DNA from: Pseudodesulfovibrio piezophilus C1TLV30
GTDB taxonomy: Bacteria; Desulfobacterota; Desulfovibrionia; Desulfovibrionales; Desulfovibrionaceae
Length of the DNA: 32,000 nt
Assembly (NCBI RefSeq): GCF_000341895.1
Contig: NC_020409.1
Span: forward strand, 2,220,001-2,252,000
Direction of reading: 5' to 3'
The notes beneath the pieces were generated by a model that was given only the letters and a program-made list of their open reading frames with translations, did not search any database and had not been told where the DNA came from. The translations under genes were made by a program, and so were the position numbers. This document shows, in pieces, positions 10,971 to 28,708 of the stretch; position 1 is the stretch's first letter; every line of letters begins with the position of its first letter.

Positions 10971-11254
10971 AAACAGCACCAACCACCTTAATCCTCACGA
11001 AGAAATAGGGCCAGTTTTTTAGACCAACCTCTATCAGATAAATTGTATTGAACTTAGAATTGTTTTTGATACGCTTGCGACCGATCGTGGTGTTGGAGAA
11101 GTGGGTTGTGATCTATTGATACCAACGAATCATTTGCTAAAGCTATTAAGCGAAATCTGAGCTTTTAAAAAAAATCAATAAGATGAAAACGATAGTAGTT
11201 GGTTCATAGTTCTATTTGGCTGATATCAAGCCATTAACAATATCGGAGCAAGTG

Positions 11255-12487: not shown

Positions 12488-14348
12488 GGAAACTTATCTT
12501 GGCGATGTGCAGGATGTGAATGGAACAACGGTTAGCATCTCTTTGTCAAAGGAGTCGTTGACTGGGTTTGTGTACATTGACGGACAAGGGTATCGGGTTA
12601 GTCAAGTAGGCAGCTTTGTTCGAATTCCTATAGGTTTTAACGATTTGTTTGGAATCGTCAGTCAGGTTGGAGCAAGTGCGGTCCCAGAGAATCAATTGGA
12701 ATCTCAAAATCATGGAAATAGGTGGATGACGATTCAACTTATAGGTGAAGGACCCAGGAATGGGGTCTTTCAGCGAGGTCTATCTCAGTATCCGACTATT
12801 GGTGATGAGGTCCATTTAGTCTCAGAAAATGAACTGCAAAATATATATGGGCAACCAGACAAGCCATATTTTGTAAAAGTGGGGCATATTTCAAATGCAG
12901 ACTCAATTCCAGCATTGATTGATGTCAATAAACTTATCAGTAGGCACTCTGCTGTAACCGGAACAACTGGCTCTGGAAAATCTACGACTGTAGCAAGTAT
13001 TATTAATGCTTTGTCTGACCGTGAGAAATATCCATCATCTAGGATAATAATGTTAGATCTTCACGGAGAATATGGCCAAGCGCTTCAGGATAAAGCTCAA
13101 ATTTATAAAATCAACAAAGAAACATCTCCAAGGTTGGAAGAGAATGAACTTCAAGTGCCATTTTGGGCACTTAATTTTGACGAATTGTGTGAGATCAGTT
13201 TCGGTGAGTTTAACAATGAAAAGGATCGGAATATCGTTATGGAGCGCGTCCATAAGTATAAACTTGAGTCCTTAACGAAGCATCCGCGAAAAGGAGTGTC
13301 TGCCGATACTCTTAGTGTTGATTCGCCTGTCCCGTTTAGTCTGCACAACTTATGGTATGAACTGTTTGTTGAGCAGTTTGGAACATACTATCGAGAAGGC
13401 GATGGTAAGCCGATAGAAAAATTAGCATACGAAACAGATGAAAATGGGGTTGAATTGAAAGGGAATCCTTCCGAGGGGATTCCTCCAATCTTTAAAAATA
13501 TTGCTACTGGGGCAGGTGAAGTAAAAGTTAATTATTTGCCTGGTAATTTAAATATTGGGAAACAGCTTTTGCTACTTGGGACCAAGTTGAGAATCCCACG
13601 ATATAACTTCCTCTTCAAGCCAGACGACTGGACCCCCAATGCTGAAGGTGACGTAGTACAAGATTTGGATACTCTTTTGATGAATTGGATTGGCAGCGAT
13701 AGACCTGTAACTATTCTAGATCTGTCTGGTGTGCCTGCCGACATTTTGCAAACAACTATAGGTGCACTCCTCCGGTTACTATATGAAGCCTTATTCTGGG
13801 CTAGAGACTTGTCTCAGGGGGGAAGGCATCGGCCTCTATTAGTCGTGATGGAAGAAGCTCACATTTATTTGAATGGCAACTCAAAAGGAATGGCTTCAAA
13901 AGTCGTACAGCGTATTGTGAAAGAAGGGCGAAAATATGGAATTGGAGCGATGATTGTTAGTCAACGCCCTTCGGAAATTAACTCAACCATATTGTCACAG
14001 TGCGGAACTTTTTTTGCCCTCCGGCTATCAAATGCTTCTGATAGAAGTCACATCACTTCTACGCTATCAGATAATTTAGATGGGCTAACAGGGATGCTGC
14101 CAATATTGAGAACAGGTGAAGCGATAATACTGGGTGAAGCTGTTAAGTTGCCTATGAGGACAACAATTGAAGCCCCCCCAAAAAACCGAAGGCCAGATAG
14201 CCAAGATCCTGTCGTTTATGATGAGGTCCCCATGGAGGAGTCTCAAAACCCAGGTGGCTGGGGAATCAAAATGGAAGCTGCTCCTCGCTATGACGAATTA
14301 GTAGAAGCTTGGAGAGCCCAAAATCCAAGAATTGACAAAGTTAAATAG
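12477..14348 (+). CDS. herA: HerA-like (DUF87) hexameric ATPase/helicase, partner of SIR2
   Basis: 623 aa. The N-terminus is HAS-barrel-like ('YLGDVQDVNGTTVSISL'). Walker A is 'GTTGSGKST' (12960-12986). Other motifs are 'DLHGEY', Walker B 'LLVVMEEAHIY' and 'RKYGIGAMIVSQRPSEI'. Confidence 0.85.
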   Translation: MSNKETYLGDVQDVNGTTVSISLSKESLTGFVYIDGQGYRVSQVGSFVRIPIGFNDLFGIVSQVGASAVPENQLESQNHGNRWMTIQLIGEGPRNGVFQRGLSQYPTIGDEVHLVSENELQNIYGQPDKPYFVKVGHISNADSIPALIDVNKLISRHSAVTGTTGSGKSTTVASIINALSDREKYPSSRIIMLDLHGEYGQALQDKAQIYKINKETSPRLEENELQVPFWALNFDELCEISFGEFNNEKDRNIVMERVHKYKLESLTKHPRKGVSADTLSVDSPVPFSLHNLWYELFVEQFGTYYREGDGKPIEKLAYETDENGVELKGNPSEGIPPIFKNIATGAGEVKVNYLPGNLNIGKQLLLLGTKLRIPRYNFLFKPDDWTPNAEGDVVQDLDTLLMNWIGSDRPVTILDLSGVPADILQTTIGALLRLLYEALFWARDLSQGGRHRPLLVVMEEAHIYLNGNSKGMASKVVQRIVKEGRKYGIGAMIVSQRPSEINSTILSQCGTFFALRLSNASDRSHITSTLSDNLDGLTGMLPILRTGEAIILGEAVKLPMRTTIEAPPKNRRPDSQDPVVYDEVPMEESQNPGGWGIKMEAAPRYDELVEAWRAQNPRIDKVK

Positions 14349-14360
14349 AAGGAGATCATC

Positions 14361-14570
14361 ATGGAAATGGAAAATGTAGAGTCTTCAAATCTTGCGGCAG
14401 TAGGGTACGATGAGGATAGTTCCACTATGCAGGTAGAGTTCAATAATGGTTCTATATACCAGTATTTTGATGTGCCTGAGCATGTTTTTGAAGAATTACG
14501 TGATGCGGATTCAGTTGGCAGATACTTTAATGCCAATGTTAAGGGCGTTTATAGGTACTCAAGGGTGTAA
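14361..14570 (+). CDS. KTSC-domain protein
   Basis: 69 aa. 'VESSNLAAVGYDEDSSTMQVEFNNGSIYQYFDVPEHVFEELRDADSVGRYFNANVKGVYRY' matches the KTSC domain pattern. The RBS AAGGAG lies just upstream. The gene starts 12 nt after the herA stop. Confidence 0.75.
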   Translation: MEMENVESSNLAAVGYDEDSSTMQVEFNNGSIYQYFDVPEHVFEELRDADSVGRYFNANVKGVYRYSRV

Positions 14571-15043: not shown

Positions 15044-15892
15044 CTAGACTAGATCTGGCCTGATCAACTTTAGCAGCCCCGTATTGAGCAGCACAACCTG
15101 TTGCTCATAGGCTGGTATCTCCATCTTCTTCTGCTCTTCTTCAGTCCGGTGCAGGCCGAGCTGCTTTAATACGTAAAAGAGCATGGATCTTCGGACCTCA
15201 AAGACGGTTTCTCCGTCTTCCATTCCATAATCCATTTCGATGGCAGTTCTCTGGTTTTCATTCAAATCAGGATGAGACCCTATCCGGACAAAAAGAATTT
15301 CATCCCATTCCTCATCTGTCTGACCTTCGATCTTCGAGTAACCCCGATCACCTGTTTCTACGATTCGTCCAAGGACGAAATCCCTGAACTCTCCACGCAG
15401 AGAACAATATGCGCGAACGTGCCAACGGAACCCGTCATGGCCAAAAGCATGTGGCGTTATACGCCTCCAGGTCGGCTCAGGGCTGGACATGGAGCGATAC
15501 AGGATATCGATAGACTGATCATCCGCCATGGTTGAAAGCAATGTTCTGAGGATGTCTGTCGGAATTGCCCTTTTGGGAACAGGCAACCGCATCATTTCAG
15601 GCATTGGAGACAGAAATCCGTCTTCAAGCAGAAGATGTCCCAACACCTGATCCGGCGTCGGATTGATGATCATCGGCTTGAAATTCTTAGTAGGTTTGTA
15701 AACTTTATCAGACGGGTCATAGTGGGCGTTGTCAGGCGCAAGCTTGACGTACTCTCTGATTGCTGCAGAAGCGCGTTCTAGAGAGATACCCAGATAATCG
15801 GCCATATCCTTTCTGCTGGCTCTTCCGAGCCAAAAAAGCCTTGCTTCAAAAAATGCAAGACGCATATATTTACTGCTATGCTTGACTGTCAT
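15044..15892 (-). CDS. HTH-WYL domain transcriptional regulator (BrxR/CapW-like)
   Basis: 282 aa. The N-terminus is wHTH ('RKDMADYLGISLERASAAIREY'). The central WYL-type segment is 'RRITPHAFGHDGFRWHVRAYCSLRGEFRDFVLGRI', followed by a C-terminal extension. It is divergently oriented from the operon starting at 16001. Confidence 0.8.
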   Translation of the reverse strand: MTVKHSSKYMRLAFFEARLFWLGRASRKDMADYLGISLERASAAIREYVKLAPDNAHYDPSDKVYKPTKNFKPMIINPTPDQVLGHLLLEDGFLSPMPEMMRLPVPKRAIPTDILRTLLSTMADDQSIDILYRSMSSPEPTWRRITPHAFGHDGFRWHVRAYCSLRGEFRDFVLGRIVETGDRGYSKIEGQTDEEWDEILFVRIGSHPDLNENQRTAIEMDYGMEDGETVFEVRRSMLFYVLKQLGLHRTEEEQKKMEIPAYEQQVVLLNTGLLKLIRPDLV

Positions 15893-16000
15893 AAAAGTGG
15901 TGTGTTAGAAATTCAAACGGTTTCATTAAATCAACTACAAGAAGACATTCTCACAGTGTTTAATAAAAGTCAACATAGTCATAGTTTGTTTTAGGGGTTA

Positions 16001-17347
16001 ATGATGGCTTGGAACGATGTAATGGTCGCAGTCATGCGGCTTGTCGACCTGTACGACACTCCAAAAACTCCAGAGAACTTAGCAGCTCAAGTCGTTAAGG
16101 GAGGACGTAAGGAGTCCACTGACAATCCTGTTGCAGGAATGTTCTTTGACGCTGGAACCGCTGTCCTGGAGTACCTGGATGCGACAGAGGAGGAAGCACC
16201 CGGCACCTATACTCTTCTGAGTGTTGTCGTGAGAGATCTAAGGGAGGATTTTCCTGAATTTTCAGAGGATGACTTTCATTACGTGATCGCCAAGCTGACA
16301 GAAACATACCCAGTTTTCTTTGTTCGCGACGGGGTCATGATAAGAAATACAGCTCTTATTGATCGTGCCCCTGCAGGCAAGCGCATACGACTCTCAGTCA
16401 AAGGCCGAATGGCTTTGGCTTTATCTGAAGCTGCTGACGACTGGATTTATCTTGACTTGGATGCAGAGCGAATTGTGAGGGCAATAGGGCGTGGAAATTT
16501 CGGGGAAGTCGAGAAGTTCTGCATTGCCATGAAGCAGAGTATCAAATCGGCAAGCTTACAAGTCAGGGCCATTCTTGAAAAGCCTTCTACCAGTCTCGTC
16601 AAGGAGGCCCTTTACAATGACAACCACCTCTATGCAAAGACAGTAAGTAATATCCAAAAGACTGTGTCAAAGGGGTTGGACAATATGCAGAGCCCCGAGA
16701 CTCAAGATTTAATTGATGACTGGATAGAGTTGAGGCCGGAAGATGAAGGCATCGAATGGACAATCAAAAACAACCTACACACGATTAACTCTCTAATCGA
16801 AACTATCTCTCGAAATCTTGGCGATATCCTCGTGCGTGCCCAGCAAGATGGTGAGAGAACTCTTTCAATCCCAGACTTCCTTGCTGCTGCAGATGTCTTT
16901 GTGCTGAACAAAGACGCAAATGTCGCAGTCTCTGCAATCAATTTTCTCCATCGTCCCACGACCGAACATGCTTCCATTGTGGACGCCATCAAGCCGATCG
17001 AGATCAAAAAGGTCAAGCCAAGGATTGTTGCCACATTTGATGTAGGCGTAGCAGAGCAGGTGCTTACCATTGCCGATATTTTCCAAAAGAAGCACGGTGA
17101 CAGATTTCTTGAGCTGGCATCTGGAGGAAAGCTCTCCTTATTTGATTTGGTTCAAACAGGAGAACTTGATTCTGACAAAGTAAGTGACCTGGGTATTCTC
17201 CAAGGAGCATTTCTTGATGCCCAGACCATGGGCTTTTCAAAGGGCTATTTCAACGTATCCCTTGGTACAAAGCAGCTCTCAATGAAGATTCAAAAGAACA
17301 TGCATATTTTTCAAGACCTTATCCTTCAATATACCCCTGAGAGGTAA
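16001..17347 (+). CDS. hypothetical protein; JetA/kleisin-like by position in a Wadjet-like operon
   Basis: 448-aa ORF, first gene downstream of the divergent WYL regulator. Its size and position match JetA/MksB-type subunits, but I recognise no motif. The assignment is by synteny only. Confidence 0.4.
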   Translation: MMAWNDVMVAVMRLVDLYDTPKTPENLAAQVVKGGRKESTDNPVAGMFFDAGTAVLEYLDATEEEAPGTYTLLSVVVRDLREDFPEFSEDDFHYVIAKLTETYPVFFVRDGVMIRNTALIDRAPAGKRIRLSVKGRMALALSEAADDWIYLDLDAERIVRAIGRGNFGEVEKFCIAMKQSIKSASLQVRAILEKPSTSLVKEALYNDNHLYAKTVSNIQKTVSKGLDNMQSPETQDLIDDWIELRPEDEGIEWTIKNNLHTINSLIETISRNLGDILVRAQQDGERTLSIPDFLAAADVFVLNKDANVAVSAINFLHRPTTEHASIVDAIKPIEIKKVKPRIVATFDVGVAEQVLTIADIFQKKHGDRFLELASGGKLSLFDLVQTGELDSDKVSDLGILQGAFLDAQTMGFSKGYFNVSLGTKQLSMKIQKNMHIFQDLILQYTPER

Positions 17348-17350
17348 GTT

Positions 17351-18133
17351 GTGTTTCAAGATGCTGAATTGTTTAGTCGTTTTACAGGATGGCTGTTTAC
17401 CCATCGTCAAATCAGGACCAGAATTCCCAAAGGGGAGCGATTCAAGGATGGGGAAAAAGAACTGAGTATTGAGATCCGCCAGATTACAGACAAGGAACGC
17501 GCCTTCCTCATGGATTACTTTGCGTTCAATGGCTTCAAGCTCATTGTTTTTGGCTGGGATGAGTTCAAAGGAATACCTGAAGGTGGGCAGATATGGACAA
17601 TTGTTCGTGACCCCTTGGCTGGAGATCCGCCCCCTTGGATTTCTGAGGCCGAAGCGCGTGCCAGGCTTTCAATTGGTCCTGAGACAAAGAAAGAGACCTG
17701 TATTTGGACTCTCGTCATATATTTGCACTACCTGAGCTACACCTACACACTGATAGGTCGTCATCCTTCTGAGATCTCGCGCTATGTGGATGCCATTTTC
17801 ACTAAAGAACAGCTTTTTGAAGCTATCAAAGAGTGGCTTAACGAGCTTGCAAAAGAGAATTTTCAGAAAACTGAAATCATGACAATTCTAACGAGCGAAA
17901 GCGAGACTCAGCTATATCGGCGTGTTTCAAACTTGCTCGATTTCCTCAAAGAAACGAATTGCATCGCTTTCAGCAAAGAGGACAACGCGTATAGCCAGAC
18001 TCTCCTCGGAGCCGCTGAAGTCAATGAACATTACGATGGTGAAATCGCCTACCTTGTTCCCAAGGACGAGATAACCGAATCTGACCTCGAATCCATCCTT
18101 TTTGAAGAGCAGGACAACACTCCGGAGAATTAA
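17351..18133 (+). CDS. hypothetical protein; JetB/KITE-like by position in a Wadjet-like operon
   Basis: 260 aa. GTG start 3 nt after the upstream stop, with GAGAGG upstream. The C-terminal tail is acidic. Its size and position match JetB/MksE (DUF4194-like). The assignment is by synteny only. Confidence 0.4.
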   Translation: MFQDAELFSRFTGWLFTHRQIRTRIPKGERFKDGEKELSIEIRQITDKERAFLMDYFAFNGFKLIVFGWDEFKGIPEGGQIWTIVRDPLAGDPPPWISEAEARARLSIGPETKKETCIWTLVIYLHYLSYTYTLIGRHPSEISRYVDAIFTKEQLFEAIKEWLNELAKENFQKTEIMTILTSESETQLYRRVSNLLDFLKETNCIAFSKEDNAYSQTLLGAAEVNEHYDGEIAYLVPKDEITESDLESILFEEQDNTPEN

Positions 18134-18134
18134 G

Positions 18135-21100
18135 ATGTCATTAATGTTTCTGGCCCAAGTTGCCAACTATCTCAATGGCGATCAAAATGATGAATGGACA
18201 CCGTTTTATATAAATTCGGTCATAATGTTCCGAGGGTATTCGTCCATATTCAAAGGGACAAACGGCATCGGGAAAACGACCTTGTCGAAAGCTATCCTTG
18301 CTTGTCTGGGATGGAAAAATGACTTCGTTTTGCACACCAAAGAGCGGATGTCTCCTCCTGACAGCACAATGAGCCATATTCGCATTGAGTTTGTGCGTCC
18401 GTTTGCCGACCCAGAGCCCATGCAGGCCATACTGCCAATGGATCAAGTTGGCGTTCAGGGCGAACACTGGGTCTTCGGAATTTGCGGACACAAGGGGACC
18501 GGAGACGTCATTCGCTATAAGTACAAAGGTACAATTGCGGATGTGCCGTTAGGCAATGTCGTTGACGGAAGGCACATCTTGCTGCCGGATGAAGATGTAC
18601 AGAAGATGATCGAGAGTGCCGATGAGGGGGCGTATTCTGTAAGCGAGGCCGCGTGGAGAAAGGAGGTCGCACACCATATTCGTCCACGCCAATTGCGCAT
18701 GCTTGAAAAGTTCCAGCGCCAAGGAGCTGGTGATCATTCCACAAGCTTGTTTGATGTTCAGGCAAAGGGTGTGGAACGATATGATCAAGCATTTTTTTAT
18801 AGCCAGATTGTTCCGGAGCTTATGGATGGATTGCATTCTGAGAAGAAGGATGGAAATGCCGACAGCGAAGAGGTCGTTGAGTCCTTTGAGGACACAGTCG
18901 TTCAAGGTTCTCAGAAGCTGATCCAAGCTAAGATTAAACTTGGGGAAACGAAAACTCGGATTGATGATTTAAAAAAACTTCAAACTGGACTCGTGGGGCT
19001 TGGCCAGAAGGCGCATGAGTATTCAGAATCCAAAGCGAGCTACCACAAAAAACTGGGGAAAGTCGCTGAGATTGGTGCCGCTCTTGATGTTGTTAGCCAC
19101 CGAGAGCTCCCTGGCGTTCCCAAGTGGGTTGGGCATTCTGACGAAGTCGCAGAAACACTGTTGATGAATATGGCTATACGGCCTGGCATAGGCCCATGCC
19201 TCCGCCCTCAAGGGATTGATGAGTTGTTAGAAATCAAAAAAGACAGGACTACTGCCTTACTTGCCGACACTGAAATTGAATATGCAAAGTCGCTACAAGT
19301 TGTTGAAATTATTAACGAGGAAACTCCCGCAAAAAAGGGTGGCCCCTCTTCTGGTTCATATCTCTCTTTGGCCAACTCTTTGGATTTTATCGATACGATT
19401 CCAGCTAGTGTTTTTAAGGTGCAACCTCAAAACGAGTTACACCGCCGCGAGGAACTGAAACAGATAATCACCATGGCCTTTGCTCATTTTGGTAAAAAAA
19501 TGGACACAAGCCCTCATCGAAAATCCATGGCGATCATAGAAAAACAGGGCAACACAGAAAAGTCACGCCTCGACTCCCGAAAAGACAAGTTTGAAGAAAT
19601 CAATAAGGATATCCAATCGATAAAGGACATGCGAGATAGCATGGCCAAACCTCGTGCGGCCTGGGAAGCCATGCGTGAGAGTGAGGAGTTCTATTCAGCC
19701 CAACTCGATGATCCAGGACGGACAGGCGAATGCGTCCAAAAGAAGTTCGAAAAGCTAGATGGTGAGGTCAGCCGCTTGGATCAGATGATTGGTGGTATAA
19801 GCGACAATGAAAAAAGCCTGCTGTTGTTTAGAGATAAATACGGCAATAACGCAGATCCTCTTCAGATCAAAACCAGCCTCAACGAAACTCTGGAACGTAT
19901 TTCCTCCATAAAGGCCTTGTACGAAGCCTCATTTGAACATCTTGAGCTTGAAAAGGGATGTCTCGTCTCGAAGGTCACAGAATTAGCTGTTGACTATAAT
20001 GGGGCTACGAGTGCGCTTTCGGTTATCTCAAATCAAAAAGAAGCTTGGGATCGTATTCAAGAGGTGTTTCAGGGCTTAAGCTATGAGACTATACGCGATC
20101 GATTGAATGAGCAGGAATTGATTCTTGAGAAGGTCCTTGCTGACGCAAAAAAAGATAAGGGGTATCTCAAAGAAGACATGAAAGAGCGCCTTGGCCTGGG
20201 TTATACTTTAATTAAAAAGTGCACTGAGCAGTCTGACATCATCCAGAGGGAGCTTTGCACCAGCGAAAGTGCGCTCCAGGAAGTCCTTTGTGCGCTTAAA
20301 GATGTTGAGGCTTTCAGAGCTAAGTACGGTGAGGAGACTACACCAGAAGCCGAGCTTGACCTTCTGAATAAATGGCAGCTTAAGACTGAGAATCGTATCG
20401 AGGACTTAGAAGCCTGTGTCAAAGGGTTTAAGGATCAACTACATATACTTAAATCAAAACAAGGCGCACCGTCCGGTGTTGTGGCCGAAGCCTTGGCCAT
20501 GGTACAGGAGGAAACCGAATTTCAGATGCTGTTCGAAGTTATTGAGGCGGAACCGACTCTTTCAACTGAGCAGAAAGAAGAAGCCCTTGAGCAGCTTTCT
20601 GCAACGCTCTTTGCGCCGGTTGTTAAGAGCAAGGTTGAGGCTCAAGCGATTGCGAATATATTCGAAAGGGAGAACTATCCTATCCCTGTCTTCCTCCTTG
20701 AGGGTTTTCAAAAGCTCCTAAGAAGCAATGAGCTTTCAAATCTTTCCGATGCCATATTTGCTCACAAGAGCAAAATGGTGGGTATCATCCTCAACAAGGA
20801 TGAACGTGAGGCATTAAAGGCTAGGCTTGAAAAGAAGATCGTCACATATGGTAAAGCCGTATCTGTCGCAAATGAATTTGCTCTCAAGATTGGTCCGTCC
20901 TCGCCTTTGGCGAAAGCGCTGATTCGAGCACAGACCGCTGTGGAGAGTGATGCCGAGACGAAAGCCTCAAAACGTTTCTCGGAAGTTATCGGTAAAGCCA
21001 GACGTCTTATCCATGTCTCCAAAGTATTTGATAATGCTTGTGATGATTGGGGGGAAGCCCCCCAAAGGCTCAACTCATTCGAAAAGGATTTTGCAGGGCT

Positions 21101-23204
21101 CCTGGAGCTGCAAATGGGTCGGGCTTCATGTGTTCACGATGTCGAGGAAGTTTCTTCCTTGGCCATAGAGTCTGCAGTAGGGAATCTGCATGAGGATATG
21201 GGCACGGCTTCACAGAAGCTGCAGAGCACTGTGAAAGAGTTCGAGGGACGTTTGGTTGACTATGAGGCCGACATAAATAAAGAAGCGAGGCTCATCCAGG
21301 GACGGGTGGATGCTGCAAAGGATAACCTTTTTAAGTTCAAAGAAGAATTTCGAAATGAGAGTTCGTTTGCAACAAACTTTGCCCGTGCAAAGGGCTTTAG
21401 TGAATCTATCTATGAAGAGGCAAAGCTGGGAGTCCGTAACACGAAAGACGTCCTCGACTCTCATAGCGGAGCTCTCGAAGAGAGCAATGATGCCCTGATT
21501 GCGATATCCGAAAGTGTGGCAGAGTTGAAGGTAAGGGAAGAAAACGTCGCCAATCGATTGGACAAGCTCAATTTTGACGATTTGGCGGCGTTCATCGCTT
21601 GTGGCGAAGGAAATGATAAAGACGACCTGGTCAAGCGCTGTGATCAAACAAAGGAAGAGCGTGCGGATTGGATGTTGCTGCTCAAGTATGAGTACGATCA
21701 GGCTCAAAAGTATGTACCCAAAAGAAGGGAAGATGAAGATCTCCTCGTGCGTTTGGAGTCTCTAAAGGAAGAGCGTGCTGGAATCGAAGATGAGATCAAA
21801 TCCATCAAAGATCGTCTTGAGGTGATTAATAAGTCCTATGCAGAGTTGAAGAATAAGTCTTTGGAGTATGATCTCCAACTCTTGAAAATTCAAAAGCAAC
21901 GTAAAGCATTTGCTTCCCTGCTTGGTGAAATTGAAACGTTGGACAAGAAAGAAGATTCACCAGAAATTGAAGCAGTTAGGCAGCACGTCGATAGTGTTTT
22001 CAAGGCTGTGGATGAAGAACATTATGAATCCCTGGTTGAATTTGTAAGAGCAATCGCATCGACGCTCGAAGCGTTCAAAGCAGAACGCAAAGTTGAGCGT
22101 GCGAAAACTGCCAAAAATAAGATGATAACGAAGAAAGACGCATTTGGAGATGCGTGCGATAGGTTCGTTGAGAACAATAAAGAAAAAATCCTTACCGGCA
22201 TGGCCAATGACCTGTTGAGCGCCAAAAGCCAACCGGGCATGATCGGCAAAATCATCCAGGAAAAACGAAGGGAAATCGAAGAGAAGGATGAACACTACGA
22301 TGTCCAGAAAGGTATCTTTGACGATCTTTGGAGAGATCTGCTTGTCAGAATGAAAAACATGTCGGCCCAGGCCAAAGACTCTTTCCGCCTTCTGAGACGT
22401 GTTTGCAACAAGTACAAAGAAGGTGCGACCTTCTTCCTGGAAGCTGATGTCGCCTCGGATGAGGCCATCATGGCAATTTTGGAAGAAATCAGGGACAGAG
22501 TAGAGCTTCAAAACGCGAAGCTCCAACTAGAGTTGGAAAGCGGTAATATCACTCCCAAGCATGCCAAAAGGACAGCCGAGAAAGGGTATAATAGCCAATT
22601 CATGGCCGATGTTCGTAATACCCTTTTCAAGGGCTTCTTTATCAATGTTTCAATCAAATTCAGGCACCCTGAAATTGCTGGCCACAATAAGCGCCTGTAT
22701 GACGACAACAAGCTGAGCGACGGGCAAAAGACGGCCCTACAGTTGCTCATGGTGGTCAGGTTGGCCGAGTACGCCATTTATCGCGATCGTTTGAAAGAAC
22801 GCCCCCGTGGCCGCGTCAGGAGGAAGAGCCAGGCGGAGCACAGCTTCATTCTCCTGGATGGCATGCTTTCAAATCTTTCAGACGATGATCTTATTTCTGA
22901 AAGCCTTAGTGCCTTAAAGTCGTGTCTTGGTTCATTCCAACTCATCGGATTCATTCACAACCGAGGGTATGTGAATAATTATGACGTGTTCCCGTGCTAT
23001 AATGAGGCCCGTAAGTGGGACATCAAACGTCCCAATAAATCCTCTTCCAAATGGGTGAGAGTTTTGGACATAGACAAGGATGGAGAGGAAGTAGATCACA
23101 CCTCAGGTGTTGAGGTCTGGCATTCTGCAGTTGTGCCGCTTGAGTCCGAGCAAGCTGGCTTAACGTTTGATGATAACGTTGAAGTTGAGGCGGAAGCAAG
23201 ATGA
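18135..23204 (+). CDS. giant SMC/Rad50-like ABC ATPase (JetC/MksF-like), about 1689 aa
   Basis: - The N-terminal head carries Walker A 'GTNGIGKTT' (18255-18281).
- More than 1200 residues are E/K/L-rich and coiled-coil-like.
- The C-terminal head carries the signature-like 'LSDGQK' (22713-22730) and the Walker B-like 'FILLDG' (22845-22862).
- The ATG at 18135 lies 1 nt after the upstream stop. The ORF-track TTG at 18102 is less likely.
- An ATGA overlap links it to the next gene. Confidence 0.7.
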   Translation: MSLMFLAQVANYLNGDQNDEWTPFYINSVIMFRGYSSIFKGTNGIGKTTLSKAILACLGWKNDFVLHTKERMSPPDSTMSHIRIEFVRPFADPEPMQAILPMDQVGVQGEHWVFGICGHKGTGDVIRYKYKGTIADVPLGNVVDGRHILLPDEDVQKMIESADEGAYSVSEAAWRKEVAHHIRPRQLRMLEKFQRQGAGDHSTSLFDVQAKGVERYDQAFFYSQIVPELMDGLHSEKKDGNADSEEVVESFEDTVVQGSQKLIQAKIKLGETKTRIDDLKKLQTGLVGLGQKAHEYSESKASYHKKLGKVAEIGAALDVVSHRELPGVPKWVGHSDEVAETLLMNMAIRPGIGPCLRPQGIDELLEIKKDRTTALLADTEIEYAKSLQVVEIINEETPAKKGGPSSGSYLSLANSLDFIDTIPASVFKVQPQNELHRREELKQIITMAFAHFGKKMDTSPHRKSMAIIEKQGNTEKSRLDSRKDKFEEINKDIQSIKDMRDSMAKPRAAWEAMRESEEFYSAQLDDPGRTGECVQKKFEKLDGEVSRLDQMIGGISDNEKSLLLFRDKYGNNADPLQIKTSLNETLERISSIKALYEASFEHLELEKGCLVSKVTELAVDYNGATSALSVISNQKEAWDRIQEVFQGLSYETIRDRLNEQELILEKVLADAKKDKGYLKEDMKERLGLGYTLIKKCTEQSDIIQRELCTSESALQEVLCALKDVEAFRAKYGEETTPEAELDLLNKWQLKTENRIEDLEACVKGFKDQLHILKSKQGAPSGVVAEALAMVQEETEFQMLFEVIEAEPTLSTEQKEEALEQLSATLFAPVVKSKVEAQAIANIFERENYPIPVFLLEGFQKLLRSNELSNLSDAIFAHKSKMVGIILNKDEREALKARLEKKIVTYGKAVSVANEFALKIGPSSPLAKALIRAQTAVESDAETKASKRFSEVIGKARRLIHVSKVFDNACDDWGEAPQRLNSFEKDFAGLLELQMGRASCVHDVEEVSSLAIESAVGNLHEDMGTASQKLQSTVKEFEGRLVDYEADINKEARLIQGRVDAAKDNLFKFKEEFRNESSFATNFARAKGFSESIYEEAKLGVRNTKDVLDSHSGALEESNDALIAISESVAELKVREENVANRLDKLNFDDLAAFIACGEGNDKDDLVKRCDQTKEERADWMLLLKYEYDQAQKYVPKRREDEDLLVRLESLKEERAGIEDEIKSIKDRLEVINKSYAELKNKSLEYDLQLLKIQKQRKAFASLLGEIETLDKKEDSPEIEAVRQHVDSVFKAVDEEHYESLVEFVRAIASTLEAFKAERKVERAKTAKNKMITKKDAFGDACDRFVENNKEKILTGMANDLLSAKSQPGMIGKIIQEKRREIEEKDEHYDVQKGIFDDLWRDLLVRMKNMSAQAKDSFRLLRRVCNKYKEGATFFLEADVASDEAIMAILEEIRDRVELQNAKLQLELESGNITPKHAKRTAEKGYNSQFMADVRNTLFKGFFINVSIKFRHPEIAGHNKRLYDDNKLSDGQKTALQLLMVVRLAEYAIYRDRLKERPRGRVRRKSQAEHSFILLDGMLSNLSDDDLISESLSALKSCLGSFQLIGFIHNRGYVNNYDVFPCYNEARKWDIKRPNKSSSKWVRVLDIDKDGEEVDHTSGVEVWHSAVVPLESEQAGLTFDDNVEVEAEAR

Positions 23205-24340
23205 CGCAAAAAAAGGAAAGCATAGTAAGAGAAGCCCTTCGGAAGATGGCAGGCAAAAATGCCAAGCTCAATCCCGGCAAGCTCCAAAGCCGAATAATGC
23301 GGACAACTGGTCTTGATACCGTCTCAATCAAAATCGGGATGCAAGCGTTACTCGACAAGAAGGAAATTGAGGCTGTTGAATGGGATTCAATGAACTGCAT
23401 GCCTCTTGGCCAAATGTCTTTGAACCTAAAGCCACTCCCCGTTGAGCCGCATGTGCATTCCTGGCAGCAAGCTGTATCAATATCATCCCTTGCACCCAAA
23501 GCAAAAAAAGCTCTTTCACACAAGCGAGTTGCTGGCAAAATGAAGGGGGCATCTGATGGTTTTATGGTCGAGCTTATCAGATCTATTGAAGTGTTGATTC
23601 AAGGTCAGGATGACATACCAGAAGGAAGCCCATTGTTTGAGGCCAGCGCCAGGTTTCTTTGTGGATCTTCAAAGATGCTCGATGATTTTGGCCCAACACT
23701 ACTTAAAACGATCGGCTTAGATGTCGAACGCTTTTCTAGGTCACCTAGATATGTGATAGTGGCAGGCCCACCTTCTCCAGAAGCGGTTGTTCTTATTGAA
23801 AATCCACATTCTTTTGAAAGAGCCATTCAAAGTGATGCTTCCTGTGCTTACGTCTGTACATATGGGTTTGGTTTGACGATGAGCCATGATGGATATGGAA
23901 CTCTTTTACTTGAAAATATCACAACCCATCTTCCCCATCTAAAAACATTGGTTCGCCGAGGGAATCCTCCAAAAATTAGGACTCTACTTGAACATCAAAA
24001 ATTGTTTTTTTGGGGAGACTTGGATCTTTCAGGGATGCGAATCTATGATTCATTACACCTGCAATATCCTCATATACGACTTTCAGCTTTATATGGCCCC
24101 ATGTTGAAGTCATTAAAGGAGGGAGGAAGTCATCCTTATATACCGGCTGCAGGGAAAGGAAAGCCTGGACAGCCAGTACAACATAAGAAACTCGGTGAAT
24201 TAAAGGATTCGGTTGCACAAAGGGTAGCTAATCTTTGTGCTCAACGAGCCGTTGATCAAGAGATAGTTCTTGAGGGATTCAAAGAATTAAGCATGCACCA
24301 ACTCAGTGAAGCAATGATTGAGGAGTTCTTTAATGAGTAA
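23201..24340 (+). CDS. JetD/MksG-like Toprim (DUF2220-type) nuclease subunit
   Basis: 379 aa. The C-terminal half, 'VVLIENPHSFERAI...LFFWGDLDLSGMRIYDSLHLQYPHIRLSALYGPML', matches the JetD pattern 'ENxxTF ... YWGDxDxxGxxIL'. The WGDLDLSG codons lie at 24011-24034. The N-terminal half is not recognisably DUF3322-like to me. Confidence 0.7.
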   Translation: MTQKKESIVREALRKMAGKNAKLNPGKLQSRIMRTTGLDTVSIKIGMQALLDKKEIEAVEWDSMNCMPLGQMSLNLKPLPVEPHVHSWQQAVSISSLAPKAKKALSHKRVAGKMKGASDGFMVELIRSIEVLIQGQDDIPEGSPLFEASARFLCGSSKMLDDFGPTLLKTIGLDVERFSRSPRYVIVAGPPSPEAVVLIENPHSFERAIQSDASCAYVCTYGFGLTMSHDGYGTLLLENITTHLPHLKTLVRRGNPPKIRTLLEHQKLFFWGDLDLSGMRIYDSLHLQYPHIRLSALYGPMLKSLKEGGSHPYIPAAGKGKPGQPVQHKKLGELKDSVAQRVANLCAQRAVDQEIVLEGFKELSMHQLSEAMIEEFFNE

Positions 24341-24740
24341 GCATATCGCCATGGAACTGAACTGCCCAGGATGGATTCAAAAGCTCATCGAGAACAAAGA
24401 CGAGATCCAAGCAAAGCAAGCTATCAGAAATGAATTTGAAAAGCTTGTGGAAGGGCTGGAACTACCTCTTTCCGAACAAACGATCGGTGAATCTCATTTG
24501 CACGGTGATTGCCGGGAATTCAGACGCCTGAGCCTCTTTGTGAAGTACCACAGTACCTACCATGTTCGACGAGGAGGCTGCGGCCTGTGCAGCAAACACC
24601 ATTGGCTTGCGACATGGTGCATCCTGCCTAGCCATCACGCTAAGGAAGTAGAGATCGCAGAACAGGTGGCTAAAGACTTTGATCGTCGCTATCCGTACCT
24701 GGGCATCCTCTCGATGCCCTATGAATGGTGGCAAATTTAG
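24333..24740 (+). CDS. hypothetical Cys/His-rich protein, translationally coupled to the jetD-like gene
   Basis: 135 aa counted from the ATG at 24333, which overlaps the upstream stop by 8 nt (ATGAGTAA). It contains 'HLHGDC', 'GGCGLCSKHHW' and 'CILPSHH', a possible metal site. I recognise no family. Confidence 0.55.
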   Translation: MSKHIAMELNCPGWIQKLIENKDEIQAKQAIRNEFEKLVEGLELPLSEQTIGESHLHGDCREFRRLSLFVKYHSTYHVRRGGCGLCSKHHWLATWCILPSHHAKEVEIAEQVAKDFDRRYPYLGILSMPYEWWQI

Positions 24741-24755
24741 AACAGGAGTATAGAC

Positions 24756-25019
24756 ATGACTACTACAGCATCATCTGTCGATTGGGTTAAGCTCATTGGC
24801 GGTGGTTTCGCTCACCAGACAGCTCCCTTTGCTGTGCATCCTCTTGATAAAGGCCGTGCTAAAGAATATCTGCAACAAGCGAAGGCCCATGGCTTGACCG
24901 TTTCAGATGCAGTTGCCCACGCTAAAGAATACCTGGCCACGGCCATAGGATGGCCGGTCAATGAAGCAGAAGCACTCCAGCGCGTAAGGGAGTTCTTCGC
25001 AGGGAAGCTGCCCCAGTAA
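24756..25019 (+). CDS. hypothetical 87-aa protein
   Basis: AGGAG RBS about 8 nt upstream; the gene starts 15 nt after the previous stop. It has an internal repeat 'AKEYLQQAKAHG' / 'AKEYLATAIGW'. I recognise no family. Confidence 0.55.
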   Translation: MTTTASSVDWVKLIGGGFAHQTAPFAVHPLDKGRAKEYLQQAKAHGLTVSDAVAHAKEYLATAIGWPVNEAEALQRVREFFAGKLPQ

Positions 25020-25166
25020 CTCCCTACCAATGACATTGGGCTTACTTATTGATACAAAGACGAAGAGAGCCTGATTGCTTTGCGACCAGGACCATTTCAA
25101 CCCCATCACTCAAGGAGGCACGACATGACATTTCTATAGGTAATCTATAACCATAGGAGGTCTGTC

Positions 25167-25712
25167 ATGCCTGACTATCGTTGGTCGTACTATCTCACCG
25201 CTCCGTGGGAGCTGGTGGATGAATGGTATCGTGCGGTCAAATTCGGTATCCGTAATCTGTTCCAGTGGTTTCCCGTTGTGTGGGCCGATCGACACTACAC
25301 GTCCTGGGGAATGTTCAACGTTATCCGTCACAAGCTCGTGCTCATGCAGCGTGAGTTGAGCCGTAATCCGTATTACGTGGGCGCAGAACGCGATCTGCAC
25401 TTGATGCACATCTGTGAGCTGCTCATCGAGCGCTACTTCGCAGATAAGTACAGCGAACGTTGTTTCAAGCGCCATGAGGAGAAATGGGGTGAAATGCGCG
25501 ACTTCTGGGAACCGTCCTACGACCACGAAACCGGCGATATCGATCCGAACTACTGCATGTCGTTTACGGATTGGCCAAACGCTCCCACTCCGAAGTTGGA
25601 AGGAAAAGCGTGGAAGGAAATGCGTGCTTGCTTCGACCATGAGCGAAAACTCGCAGATCAGGATATCCAGTATCTGTTTAAGCTTCTGAGCAAGCACTAT
25701 CGCCGTTGGTAG
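25167..25712 (+). CDS. hypothetical 181-aa Trp-rich protein
   Basis: Strong RBS (TAGGAGG) 7 nt upstream. The composition looks protein-like. A 16-bp perfect hairpin follows immediately. The longer antisense ORF 25134..25919 crosses that hairpin and the next gene's start, so I treat it as a shadow. Confidence 0.6.
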   Translation: MPDYRWSYYLTAPWELVDEWYRAVKFGIRNLFQWFPVVWADRHYTSWGMFNVIRHKLVLMQRELSRNPYYVGAERDLHLMHICELLIERYFADKYSERCFKRHEEKWGEMRDFWEPSYDHETGDIDPNYCMSFTDWPNAPTPKLEGKAWKEMRACFDHERKLADQDIQYLFKLLSKHYRRW

Positions 25713-25714
25713 GC

Positions 25715-25755
25715 AAAGGAAAGGGACGACACCTATTTGGTCGTCCCTTTCCTTT
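25715..25755 (+). terminator. hairpin terminator after the 181-aa gene
   Basis: Perfect 16-bp inverted repeat AAAGGAAAGGGACGAC (25715-25730) / GTCGTCCCTTTCCTTT (25740-25755) with a 9-nt loop. There is no clean T-tract beyond the T-rich 3' arm. Confidence 0.5.
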
Positions 25756-25806
25756 GAGGTTGGCCTTGAGTGAATACAGCAGTATGGTACGTCAAGGAGT
25801 TTACCT

Positions 25807-26784
25807 ATGATTTTGAGAACAGCTTCTAAGAATGTAGCCCTAGCCTTGGCCTTTTCTTTGGCCTTCCTTCTTTCTGGAACGTATGGAGACGCTGCTCCAT
25901 TAAAAGTTGTCTCCTTCAATATCCAATTTCTTGGTCACTTCAAAAAGAAGGACAACAAAGCTTTAGCCAAGTTGCTTTCTGACTACGACCTTGTGTTCAT
26001 TCAAGAGCTCGTGGCACCGCCTATAGCGGGTAAATATCCCGATGGTACGCCATTCAAAGCCGATAAAGAAGCCAAAGGGTTCTTTGACATCATGGGCATG
26101 CACGGCTTTTCTTTTAAGCTTTCGGAAGAGGACACCGGTACCGGTGATGAAATCCACAAAAACTCATCCGCAACCGAATGGTTTGTGGCCTTCTACAAGC
26201 CTGACAGAGTAATGCCGGCAGAGGATTTGCCTCACGGCTTCCTTGCTACGGACAGGTCAAATCATGACGACTATGAACGCGTCCCCTATGCTTTCCCATT
26301 TAGAGCAGGTGGTAGCGACCTTGTATTCATTTCGGTTCACCTGCAGCCAGGGGGAAGCGCCAAGAAAACTGCTCGACGTGCTCACGAATTCATGTCGATC
26401 TTTAACTGGATAGGAAATCAGACTGGTCAAGAACGGGATTACGTCATTCTTGGGGATATGAATATTGAGGACTGCGACGAGCTCAAATCCATCCTACCGA
26501 AAGGATACGCCTCACTGAACGACGCATGCACACCTACCAACACGAACCCTAACGGCCCAAAGCCATACGATCACGTCATTTACAGTGTGAAAGATAGCGC
26601 CAACGAGATGGCCAACAACCATTTCCAGGTAATTGACTTGGTGGCCGCTATGGAAACGACCTGGAACGAAGAAAATGGGAGCTTCCCTGGAAATCCCTAT
26701 AGGCACAAAGAACTCCGGATGCGGTACTCTGACCACCATCCTATTGCGTTAAATATTGTTATCGAAGGTACGGATGATGATTAA
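25807..26784 (+). CDS. secreted endonuclease/exonuclease/phosphatase (EEP, DNase I-like) family protein
   Basis: Signal peptide 'MILRTASKNVALALAFSLAFLLSGTYGDAAP'. EEP motifs appear in order: 'VVSFNIQFLG', 'VFIQEL', 'FISVHLQP', 'VILGDMNI', 'YSDHHPI'. Confidence 0.8.
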   Translation: MILRTASKNVALALAFSLAFLLSGTYGDAAPLKVVSFNIQFLGHFKKKDNKALAKLLSDYDLVFIQELVAPPIAGKYPDGTPFKADKEAKGFFDIMGMHGFSFKLSEEDTGTGDEIHKNSSATEWFVAFYKPDRVMPAEDLPHGFLATDRSNHDDYERVPYAFPFRAGGSDLVFISVHLQPGGSAKKTARRAHEFMSIFNWIGNQTGQERDYVILGDMNIEDCDELKSILPKGYASLNDACTPTNTNPNGPKPYDHVIYSVKDSANEMANNHFQVIDLVAAMETTWNEENGSFPGNPYRHKELRMRYSDHHPIALNIVIEGTDDD

Positions 26785-26798
26785 AAAAATTGCCCACG

Positions 26799-28586
26799 CT
26801 AGAGGGTCACACCTACTTTTCTCAGTGCATTCCTCACGGAGGCTTCTTCAGGGGTGCTTTGATCTTTGGCCTTAGAGTGATTGAAAAAATCAGACTCTCC
26901 AGGGCAAAGATCTTTAACTTTTTTAAAGACCCCTTTTGCGTAACGAATTTCATCACGTAACTGCCTTAACCAAGACTCAAGATTGTTCTGATCATATAAG
27001 GTAAAAACGAGTCCGGTCAGTGACTCTTCTTCAATGGTGGATTCACCAGCATTCCCCATTACGACAGCATGTCTCCTCTGAATCTCGACAATATAAATAG
27101 GGACATTTTGCACAACTATTCTGACAACCAACAATCCCCGAGGGCAAGTTTTCTTCTTTGCATCAAGAAACACCCAGCTCCTGACGGCGGCCTCTACTTC
27201 ATCGTCATCCCTAAACGGCTTAATAGCTATCAGGGCAATATCTTCGTCAGAGCTGAAACCATCTTCTATGGTAAACCACTGCACCGATGACACTTTATCT
27301 GGATAACATTCCTTCAAGTAAAGCAAAGCGTCCCAAACATCTCTCAACTTTCCTTTTGACTCCATGGTAGTGGGGTTGTGTATGGATGCAAATCCAATAT
27401 CGCCACCTGTGCCTTGAGGCTCGTCCGTTGAGAACTCTGTTGAGGTGATATCGTCGTACCAATCCTGGACATCGCTTTCCTTGGCTTCTTCGACCTCTTC
27501 AATAATTACTCTCCCAGGGTTGCCAATCTTCATCTCATGGTTTTGTATTTCGGCAATTGACCCTCCTTGGTTCGGCTCGGAATCATCTGTTATATGCGCT
27601 TCATCAGGGGGAGTCATGATTTCAAGCTTAACTCGTCCCTTTCCTCCGGTATCATCATCTACTGGCTCTTGCTGAAGTTCCCCATATTTATTCATTAACA
27701 ACGACACTATCGGTTTACCTAACGGAAGGTCATAGCCCATTATTTGAAGACCGAGAAAGGCGTTACCATTATCGCAAGATATTCCCCTTAAAATTAGCTT
27801 GGTTTTACCAACAAACCAAGGATCAACCTCTATAAAGATTGGCTCTGGTTTTTTTGCATCTTTGTCATAGCCAGACTCAATCTGAGAATAGATTTTTTTG
27901 GAGGCACTTTTGGTCCGTTGATCATAAAATAAGTGTGCAAGGAATGCGTTGTCACTTTTTCGAAACTTCTTACGTCTTGCGATTTTCCACACATTTTCAT
28001 CAGTGGGCTGCTTTAGGTCTCTGAAGAACCTTCTTTTGCATTCTTCTCTTCCATATGTTGCTATGACTCGTTTTACCTCTTCGCTTGCACCATACATTCT
28101 TGAAAAAAACTCTAAGCTTGGAATAGAGATCAACTCTCCCGTAATTGCCTTGAATTGCAAGTTTATGTTTTTGTCACCTTCAAAATGCAAAGGATATTTA
28201 CCCTGATCAAATGGGCGGTACCAATAGTCCAGTCCATCCACCATATCAAAAGAAGTGTGCCAAAAGTTATTTGTAAAGTTTACTTCGAATGTTCTCTCTT
28301 CAAAACGTGCAATTTTACGACATCGCCCATGACGCCAGACTGATCCCAAGCGGAGACTTCCAAGGCTGGTTAACAGGACTCTACGGTAGAGTACTCCCTC
28401 GCTTACCTGGTTGCCGACTATTTCTTTGAAAGCAACCCACACATAAGGCTGACTTTTTGCCCTACTACTTTTATTGATCCCAGAATACCACCAAACGATC
28501 CAATCACGATCATTCCCGAATAACGATTTCTTCAAAACAACACTGCTTTGTATCCGGTCAAACTCATAGTTGAAATCGAAAGGCAT
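26799..28586 (-). CDS. large hypothetical protein at the distal transposon end; possible TnsE-like target selector
   Basis: 595 aa with RBS AGGAGG upstream. It reads inward from the distal end. The central linker is acidic. Several colinear short motifs resemble my recollection of Tn7 TnsE ('IPSLEFFSRMY', 'FIEVDPWFVGKTKLILRGIS', 'STDEPQGTGG', 'IYIVEIQRR'). Coding status is firm. The functional call is tentative. Confidence 0.45.
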   Translation of the reverse strand: MPFDFNYEFDRIQSSVVLKKSLFGNDRDWIVWWYSGINKSSRAKSQPYVWVAFKEIVGNQVSEGVLYRRVLLTSLGSLRLGSVWRHGRCRKIARFEERTFEVNFTNNFWHTSFDMVDGLDYWYRPFDQGKYPLHFEGDKNINLQFKAITGELISIPSLEFFSRMYGASEEVKRVIATYGREECKRRFFRDLKQPTDENVWKIARRKKFRKSDNAFLAHLFYDQRTKSASKKIYSQIESGYDKDAKKPEPIFIEVDPWFVGKTKLILRGISCDNGNAFLGLQIMGYDLPLGKPIVSLLMNKYGELQQEPVDDDTGGKGRVKLEIMTPPDEAHITDDSEPNQGGSIAEIQNHEMKIGNPGRVIIEEVEEAKESDVQDWYDDITSTEFSTDEPQGTGGDIGFASIHNPTTMESKGKLRDVWDALLYLKECYPDKVSSVQWFTIEDGFSSDEDIALIAIKPFRDDDEVEAAVRSWVFLDAKKKTCPRGLLVVRIVVQNVPIYIVEIQRRHAVVMGNAGESTIEEESLTGLVFTLYDQNNLESWLRQLRDEIRYAKGVFKKVKDLCPGESDFFNHSKAKDQSTPEEASVRNALRKVGVTL

Positions 28587-28605
28587 TAGATCCTCCTAAT
28601 GAAAA

Positions 28606-28630
28606 ATGCCACATTCAAAACATGTGGCAT
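28606..28630 (-). terminator. hairpin between the transposon tip and the 595-aa gene (possible read-through terminator or operator)
   Basis: 9-bp inverted repeat ATGCCACAT / ATGTGGCAT with a 7-nt loop. On the minus strand it is followed by TTTTTCATT and then the AGGAGG RBS of the 595-aa gene. Confidence 0.35.
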
Positions 28631-28635
28631 CATCT

Positions 28636-28703
28636 GTTGTCCTTATTTGGAAAGACATGTCGCAGCTAATTTCAAAATGTCGCAACAATTTCAAAAAATC
28701 ACA
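28636..28703. repeat. distal transposon end with contiguous TnsB-type repeats
   Basis: 'ATGTCGCAGCTAATTTCAAA' (28656-28675) and 'ATGTCGCAACAATTTCAAAA' (28676-28695) are head-to-tail 20-bp repeats. A degenerate third copy, 'TGTTGTCCTTATTTGGAAAG', lies at 28636-28655. The terminus ends ...AATCACA at 28703. Confidence 0.65.
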
Positions 28704-28708
28704 CCCCC
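28704..28708. repeat. target-site duplication copy 2 (CCCCC)
   Basis: CCCCC lies directly outside the ACA terminus and matches 4826-4830. Confidence 0.8.

Follow-up and report, generated by a model that had tools for sequence, protein, structure and literature searches.

Does the tightly packed operon of Pseudodesulfovibrio piezophilus that pairs the gene for a very long SMC-like ATPase with that for a JetD-type nuclease encode a further form of Wadjet immunity? In Wadjet, JetA, JetB and JetC are the kleisin, KITE and SMC (structural maintenance of chromosomes) subunits and JetD is a Toprim nuclease, with types I-III recognised (PMC10586767). The operon lies in a 32,000-nt stretch of the P. 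piezophilus genome (hereafter the window, in whose coordinates positions are given unless a locus is named). A first-pass annotation of this stretch had proposed an enlarged Wadjet-like system of six genes, here g1-g6, in which two extra coupled genes follow a JetABCD-like quartet. We conclude that g1-g4 probably belong to SMC-nuclease immunity of the Wadjet type, as a deeply diverged lineage that has not been classified so far. The proposal of a new variant is thus retained for the quartet, an undescribed and divergent set with a JetD homologue, a predicted KITE subunit and a predicted SMC architecture, and given up for the enlarged six-gene system. No 'type IV' Wadjet or equivalent was found in the literature searched, where only types I-III are described.

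The operon reads g1-g2-g3-g4-g5-g6 on the forward strand (16001-25019), with a WYL regulator gene divergent on the reverse strand (Table 1). Gaps of 3 nt (g1-g2) and 1 nt (g2-g3) are followed by an ATGA overlap (g3-g4), an overlap of 8 nt (g4-g5) and a gap of 15 nt (g5-g6), and all open reading frames (ORFs) and spacings of the first-pass map were reproduced in the ORF list. A further co-oriented conserved gene, g7, had been overlooked. For g3, a TTG at 18102 is an alternative start, while the ATG is backed by orthologues and by the NCBI protein P0001; the protein is 100% identical to a P. piezophilus record named 'coiled-coil domain-containing protein'. The motifs on which the original assignment had drawn (GTNGIGKTT, LSDGQK and FILLDG in g3, LIENPHSF and FFWGDLDLSG in g4) were all found, at family-invariant positions. 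The order of the core genes, which had been likened to JetA-JetB-JetC-JetD, matches that of a type I Wadjet locus on a Ralstonia megaplasmid, which we used as a control (L012; the other loci compared are numbered likewise).

The g4 protein is a JetD homologue whose predicted catalytic residues are intact, in agreement with its initial designation as a JetD-type Toprim protein. It matches the PADLOC JetD1 model PDLC00527 at an E-value of 1.4e-21 over residues 81-319, and Pfam JetD_C with 26.5 bits (cut-off 22). The Toprim glutamate (LIENPHSFE), the DxD motif (FWGDLD) and a C-terminal VDQE reach 90% conservation or more across 37 members, and these motifs align with those of canonical JetD1, in which the Toprim glutamate lies in FVENAATFE. 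Additionally, a weak match to MksG (8b7f) extends over WGDLDLxG.

The g3 protein has the predicted architecture of an SMC protein, with a split ABC head, two long arms and a small hinge-like centre. All 45 family sequences, which range from 1512 to 1905 residues, have Walker A (NGxGK[TS]), the signature (SxG[QE]) and the H-loop histidine. Conservation is confined to three blocks (1-240, 761-920 and 1481-1640) separated by helical, Pro/Gly-poor sequence of low conservation, and two indel-rich zones (601-720 and 961-1120) lie symmetrically around the centre. The N-terminal arm measures 481-606 and the C-terminal arm 473-686 residues, and their lengths co-vary (r 0.76, rho 0.81; 45 sequences, uncorrected for phylogeny), with the central domain of ∼138 residues kept at 134-144 residues in 43 of the 45. 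These conservation, indel and arm-length analyses were used in place of a composition-based coiled-coil proxy, which was uninformative on g3; among PDB sequences the arms match coiled-coil proteins only. A Rad50-type zinc hook was considered for the centre and rejected because no cysteine there is invariant or nearly invariant. The first estimate that g3 is about 1.5 times the length of JetC holds against type I; it does not extend to types II and III, for which the PADLOC JetC models reach 1361-1472 positions.

A catalytic glutamate following the Walker B aspartate is a feature of SMC and ABC ATPases. In the g3 family, Walker B reads hhhhD-G in 45 of 45 sequences (D1575-G1576 in the window), whereas that of canonical JetC1 reads MMIDEAFDKMD, with D-E. 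The predicted g3 head therefore lacks the aspartate-glutamate pair expected of a hydrolysis-competent ATPase. The protein also falls outside the sequence families of JetC (DUF3584, SbcC/MukB-like Walker B, TIGR02680), as judged from searches in which the window protein and four distant members gave no significant JetC match and only P-loop-level ones (E-values of 1e-2 to 5e-4). Profile searches of the PDB with 33-sequence alignments of the N-terminal head, the C-terminal head and the centre returned only coiled-coil or P-loop noise.

The AlphaFold2 model of g2 (alignment of 8 sequences) has a predicted local distance difference test (pLDDT) score of 77, a predicted template modelling (pTM) score of 0.71 and two winged-helix-like halves. 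In a Foldseek search of the PDB, its 15 best matches are exclusively MukE or JetB, led by MukE 3rpu_Y (E-value 3.3e-4, probability 1.0) and including JetB of Wadjet type II (9qe0_D, 1.6e-2) and of PA14 (8dk1_F, 4.5e-2). The modelled fold of g2 is thus a KITE fold, as expected of JetB; by sequence, g2 matches none of the DUF4194, MukE and MksE models and stands outside the JetB family. A g2 motif, FLMDYFAFNGFKLI (residues 52-65), aligns with LLGEYFEVGGFRLL (residues 54-67) of the L012 JetB in two independent hhalign runs; the alignment is statistically insignificant and a possible trace of remote homology. A JetB-like N-terminal motif of g2 was tried as a marker of coupling to JetD and rejected, since loci that lack a JetD-like gene have it equally.

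The g1 gene always opens the quartet, and its product keeps a length of ∼450-490 residues across the family: an exhaustive profile search of 1.84e9 proteins gave 116 clusters at 50% identity, nearly all of 450-490 residues. None of 95 members matched Pfam, and no PDB sequence matched g1. The AlphaFold2 model is poor (pLDDT 47.8), probably because the alignment was shallow (5 sequences). Its top three Foldseek matches are chains of MukBEF entries, led by 9gm7_C (E-value 3.6e-4, TM-score 0.13), which were assigned to MukF by length (440 residues for 9gm7_C), and the C-terminus of the model forms three helices and a β-hairpin resembling a winged helix. These features are suggestive of a MukF-like kleisin, and only suggestive.

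Among the core and regulator proteins of the window, the annotation libraries recognise just the WYL regulator and g4 (PADLOC, Pfam). Searches of fixed-date PADLOC, Pfam, NCBIfam and PHROGs libraries with g1, g2, g3, g5, g6 and g7 gave nothing significant, and distant family members of the core were also unmatched. Both the earlier remark that no JetA or JetB motifs are recognisable in g1 and g2 and the claim of novelty, as far as the quartet goes, are borne out here, as g4 alone of the four core proteins matches defined Wadjet models. The silence of g1-g3 is not due to insensitivity of the tools, because PADLOC detected the control L012 with all four models (JetA1 6.5e-189, JetB1 1.7e-84, JetC1 0 and JetD1 2.2e-126). 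Searches of PDB sequences by phmmer and profiles with g1, g2, g3 and g4 returned only coiled-coil or P-loop noise, save the weak match of g4 to MksG. Alignment of the families by hhalign with JetA, JetB and JetC of L012 and with MukF and MukE of Escherichia coli gave probabilities below 3%, which are weak negatives with such single-sequence templates.

Dozens of unrelated genomes share the quartet in synteny, with amino-acid identities of 20-87%. A word-based search of 5.8e9 proteins yielded 11 g3 clusters, and a pattern scan of 185,579 species genomes, built on the g3 alignment (that of g1 being too divergent), found at least 44 loci, a lower bound, in taxa that include Endozoicomonas, Oceanospirillum, Idiomarina, Marinobacter, Thiobacillus, Gallionella, Desulfopila, Desulfamplus and Sulfurimonadaceae. 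Mapping with hidden Markov models gave 53 distinct loci, in which g1-g2-g3 are present wherever the contig allows and a JetD-like gene accompanies them in 40 of the 50 evaluable cases. The family thus shows the four-genes-in-one-operon arrangement of Wadjet. Tn7-like genes lie near the system in 8 loci, and JetD-marked Wadjet is already known as cargo of Tn7-like transposons (PMC8649781). The same system with its WYL gene (L010, 4331-13083) is carried by the 305-kb conjugative Burkholderia plasmid pBTU, and the 490-kb Pseudomonas aeruginosa megaplasmid pPUV-6 holds a Tn3-disrupted remnant (L011), consisting of a g3 C-terminus and a JetD-like gene beside a Tn3-family transposase. In two further loci (L007, 4361-17395, and L008), the quartet occurs without a WYL gene and is flanked by AcrVA2-like, NAMPT, NUDIX/NMNAT-type NAD-salvage and Dam-type methylase genes. 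The gene content of L007 looks phage-like, but a megablast comparison of its contig with phages found no match, and tblastn of g3 against phage genomes found none either.

Ten loci contain g1-g2-g3 with no detectable JetD-like gene (L019, L024, L026, L028, L030, L031, L037, L038, L041 and L053); their hosts include Oceanospirillum, some Endozoicomonas and Desulfamplus. The WYL gene is absent from all eight of these loci with an evaluable upstream region, the neighbours are housekeeping genes (iron-containing alcohol dehydrogenase, GGDEF, histidine kinase), and g2 is often 90-120 residues longer. These three-gene operons may represent a nuclease-less, condensin-like form of the family, and their relation to the JetD-bearing loci parallels that of MksBEF to MksBEFG.

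The divergent HTH-WYL regulator noted at the outset proved to be a recurrent partner of the family. A WYL gene adjoins the core in 25 of 43 evaluable loci, in 17 divergently and in 8 co-directionally and immediately upstream, and it accompanies 24 of 33 loci with JetD against none of the eight JetD-less ones. The window protein matches Pfam WYL (1.3e-11) and PADLOC WYL (6e-14). Our local Pfam scan reported WYL and not the two BrxR-specific domains; WHD_BrxR, WYL and BrxR_CTD are all on record for orthologues with 74-86% identity. By these domains, the BrxR-specific ones via the orthologues, and by its place beside a defence operon, the regulator is predicted to belong to the BrxR family. Wadjet is one of the many systems next to which BrxR homologues have been reported (PMC9122601). 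The intergenic region between the WYL gene and g1 is 108 bp long. An imperfect inverted repeat lies in this promoter region (15882-15973), where no consensus sigma-70 site was called, and both arms are kept in L002, L009 and L001, even though the L001 core is only 32-47% identical to that of the window. The repeat is a plausible, putative operator.

That the whole module is cargo of a Tn7-like transposon, as first proposed, is supported by TnsA, TnsB, TniB and TniQ genes, by element ends TGTAATATG... and ...AATCACA of the TGT...ACA kind, and by a 5-bp CCCCC duplication. A comM/yifB Mg-chelatase-like gene is split by the element. The motif ATGCGACA is repeated near the tnsA end, and the repeats are likely TnsB-binding sites, so that, from sequence, the element has all the features expected of a Tn7-like transposon. 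Other cargo includes a SIR2-like gene paired with a HerA-type ATPase gene, which we regard as a second, separate defence module, and a small KTSC-domain gene after this pair. On the far side of the operon lie a gene for an endonuclease/exonuclease/phosphatase (EEP) family protein with a signal-peptide-like N-terminus and, beside it, a 595-residue ORF without domain matches, which has homologues beside the SMC system of L056 and L057 and weak ones beside that of L015 and L022. No tRNA or Rfam elements were found within the window. An antisense ORF overlapping g7 is probably not a real gene, since g7 is conserved at 72-97% in related loci.

Table 1. Features of the P. piezophilus window, in window coordinates.
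Feature	Position	Strand	Description
comM/yifB Mg-chelatase-like gene, part	4154-4765		split by the element
Tn7-like transposon	4831-28703		tnsA, tnsB, tnsC(tniB), tniQ; the operon is cargo
Conserved ORF	9537-10970		477 aa; within the transposon
SIR2-like gene	11216-12487		pair with HerA-type gene
HerA-type ATPase gene	12477-14348		pair with SIR2-like gene
KTSC-domain gene	14361-14570		small gene
WYL regulator gene	15044-15892	-	282 aa; predicted BrxR-family winged helix-turn-helix WYL protein
Inverted repeat (imperfect)	15882-15896 / 15959-15973		TTGACTGTCATAAAA / TTTAATAAAAGTCAA; WYL-g1 promoter region; putative operator
g1	16001-17347	+	448 aa; candidate kleisin (JetA/MukF analogue)
g2	17351-18133	+	260 aa, GTG start; predicted KITE subunit (JetB/MukE-like tandem winged helix)
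g2 motif	17504-17545	+	FLMDYFAFNGFKLI
g3	18135-23204	+	1689 aa from ATG; SMC-like ABC ATPase, JetC analogue
g3 Walker B D-G	22857-22862	+	D1575-G1576
g4	23201-24340	+	379 aa; JetD-type Toprim nuclease (predicted)
g5	24333-24740	+	135 aa, Cys/His-rich; clade-restricted
g6	24756-25019	+	87 aa; clade-restricted small gene
g7	25167-25712	+	181 aa, Trp-rich; part of conserved downstream frame
Antisense ORF	25134-25919	-	261 aa, overlaps g7; probably spurious
EEP family gene	25807-26784		signal-peptide-like N-terminus
595-aa ORF	26799-28586	-	no domain matches
comM/yifB Mg-chelatase-like gene, part	28596-29927		split by the element

The tight packing of g5 and g6 behind g4, with an 8-nt overlap across the g4 stop and 15 nt between g5 and g6, would suit an enlarged system of six or, with g7, seven genes, in which the small proteins would be obligatory, translationally coupled sensor or accessory subunits. 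Their distribution makes this quite unlikely. Besides the window, only L001 (88% identity) and L057 (92%) have g5, which even the closest relatives, L002 and L009, lack, as do all other loci; g6 is limited to the window, L002/L003, L009 (61-66%) and L057 (92%), with a fragment in L059. Both are missing from more than 40 other family loci and were rejected as conserved subunits, so that the survey of co-occurrence upheld the WYL gene as a partner and confined the two small genes to a narrow clade. The L001 locus has a Metallophos gene between g4 and g5, and its 88-residue ORF at the g6 position was rejected as g6, being non-homologous. The g7 protein is 72-97% identical in L001, L002, L009, L057 and L060, and six loci have its gene behind a JetD-like gene. 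Two more copies lie on short contigs that provide 1.6-1.8 kb upstream of g7, with no system gene detectable there: the L061 copy neighbours genes for a membrane protein and a putative ribbon-helix-helix protein (identified by eye), and the L062 copy is a pseudogene next to an ORF read as Tpx. None of the three proteins has a recognisable domain. Because no downstream gene family is common to the wider family, in which WYL is the only widespread neighbour, g5, g6 and g7 are not system subunits. Lying outside the machine, they belong to a downstream frame that is conserved in this transposon lineage, and g5 is a clade-restricted passenger or accessory. The persistence of g5, g6 and g7 behind the JetD-like gene despite differing cassettes (L001, L057, L060) speaks for a functional tie, as they could serve any cassette. 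Comparison of the window (15044-15892 and 24333-28586) with L001 (6911-18214) and L057 (1-15319) illustrates this mosaic. L001 is 86% identical in WYL, 88% in g5 and 90% in g7, with no g6 homologue, and only 32-47% identical in g1-g4. L057, on whose contig WYL is not present, is 92% identical in g5 and g6 and 97% in g7, against 24-36% in the core; it also keeps the EEP nuclease and the 595-residue gene. With flanks 86-97% identical across loci, it appears that one conserved frame has received three deeply diverged core cassettes by exchange.

Two other readings accept the quartet and differ on what it does. The better match of the g2 and g1 models to MukE and MukF than to JetB and JetA, and the ten g1-g2-g3 loci among housekeeping genes would suit a MukBEF/MksBEF-like condensin for organising or segregating chromosomal or mobile-element DNA, with g4 as a decatenating or resolving Toprim enzyme instead of an immune nuclease. 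We consider this very unlikely: the window and most loci carry a JetD-type nuclease with intact catalytic residues, the operon comes with a BrxR-type regulator, a usual companion of defence systems, its carriers are Tn7-like transposons and a plasmid, with other defence genes beside it, and its very rare and patchy occurrence (at least 44 loci in 185,579 species genomes) is unlike that of a housekeeping condensin. Loss of the Walker B glutamate, which is easier to reconcile with a slow switch that binds ATP than with a motor, could instead point to a Lamassu-like or other SMC-like sensor of phage replication intermediates or DNA ends that triggers abortive infection through the JetD-like nuclease, as a defence against phages instead of plasmids and with no loop extrusion. 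The core of L007 and L008 does lie beside phage-like counter-defence genes, although the L007 contig matched no phage, and CapW-type WYL regulators respond to single-stranded DNA or DNA damage (PMC11662680). Weak PADLOC LmuB matches were also found in the arm region (2e-5 in L001, 2e-11 in L010), but these are of the coiled-coil type and are shared with canonical JetC1; with neither LmuA nor LmuC present, Lamassu membership was rejected. Lamassu moreover has no KITE subunit and no JetD, both of which occur here, and the four-gene order is that of jetABCD. We judge such a sensor unlikely.

Several observations weigh against the reading that we favour, a divergent lineage of Wadjet-type immunity. 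As ten loci lack JetD, a nuclease function is not inherent in the g1-g3 core. No significant match of g1-g3 to JetA, JetB or JetC, to MukF, MukE or MukB, or to MksE was obtained, nor one of g3 to SMC sequences, so that Wadjet descent rests on JetD, one fold match and the architecture. The fold match itself has Foldseek TM-scores of only 0.32-0.40, and the g1 model is unreliable (pLDDT 47.8), its MukF match having a TM-score of 0.13. Finally, the change from glutamate to glycine in all 45 g3 sequences is hard to square with a canonical loop extruder driven by ATP hydrolysis and argues against plain transfer of that mechanism. Thus, the locus is Wadjet-like by architecture and shares JetD by descent, while it falls outside the sequence families of JetA, JetB and JetC and lacks the Walker B glutamate.

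By analogy with JetABCD and MksBEFG, we infer a four-protein complex that would act by loop extrusion or 'DNA measuring' on plasmids or other circular DNA. Dimerisation of g3 would give a long-armed SMC-like ring, with the split ABC heads, arms of ∼500 residues and the small hinge-like centre; the kleisin-like g1 would close the ring at the g3 heads, and KITE dimers of g2 would sit on g1. The complex might load on DNA, sense small circular or foreign molecules and then license the JetD-type Toprim nuclease g4 for cutting. The BrxR-type WYL protein would most likely repress the operon through the conserved inverted repeat until released by a ligand or a signal of the DNA-damage type. The operon itself is mobile, as Tn7-like cargo and on the 305-kb conjugative plasmid. 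A more speculative extension, which we think doubtful, is that the family forms a separate MukBEF-like SMC branch that dispenses with the Walker B glutamate and has arms ∼40-60% longer than those of type I JetC; DNA would then be recognised otherwise than by canonical hydrolysis-driven loop extrusion, or with another size threshold. Such a branch would comprise nuclease-armed immune forms under BrxR control and nuclease-less chromosomal forms, with cassettes exchanged as units in a conserved frame on Tn7-like elements.

Wadjet serves as the model system for discrimination between foreign circular DNA and the chromosome by an SMC motor, and the present family bears on that question in several ways. 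Standard detectors see this lineage as an orphan JetD only, and systems of this kind are under-counted, for example where Tn7 cargo is scored by JetD alone. Arms of ∼500-600 residues bear on the relation between arm length and DNA measuring, and the family-wide Glu-to-Gly substitution at Walker B raises the question whether the known mode of hydrolysis is required. The route from condensin-like complex to immune system may be read from sister operons that have or lack the nuclease. The link of the BrxR-type regulator to the nuclease-bearing form offers a handle on regulation, and the diverged cassettes swapped in one frame bear both on regulation and on the dynamics of the arms race.

With Lamassu the family has in common the defence context and a long coiled-coil ABC ATPase, together with the weak LmuB matches in the g3 arms, and it differs in having the KITE subunit and the nuclease. 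With MukBEF and MksBEF it shares the best structural matches (MukE for g2, MukF for g1), a centre of ∼138 residues instead of a large SMC hinge, and members that are nuclease-less likewise. It differs in the absence of hhalign similarity of g1 and g2 to E. coli MukF and MukE, in its rare, patchy distribution tied to mobile elements, in the JetD-like gene of 40 of 50 evaluable loci and in the lost Walker B glutamate. Its regulator resembles BrxR and CapW in the WYL domain, divergent transcription and a conserved repeat in the shared promoter, whereas in eight loci the WYL gene is co-directional.

The closest counterpart is Wadjet (JetABCD, MksBEFG, EptABCD), with which the family shares the order of kleisin-like, KITE, SMC-like and Toprim nuclease genes, identical to that of the type I locus L012. 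The g4 protein is nearest to type I, its best matches being JetD1 models with the glutamate, DxD and VDQE in common, g2 shares the predicted fold of JetB and MukE, and in both cases mobile elements act as carriers, including Tn7-like transposons and large plasmids. In contrast to Wadjet, g1-g3 escape the PADLOC JetA, JetB and JetC models of types I-III as well as Pfam and NCBIfam, where the type I control scores 1e-84 to 0; g3 has 1512-1905 residues against JetC model lengths of ∼1100-1470; and its motifs read D-G rather than D-E at Walker B and SxGQ rather than SGGE at the signature. Unlike Wadjet, moreover, the family is often coupled to a BrxR-type WYL regulator and has nuclease-less relatives of three genes.

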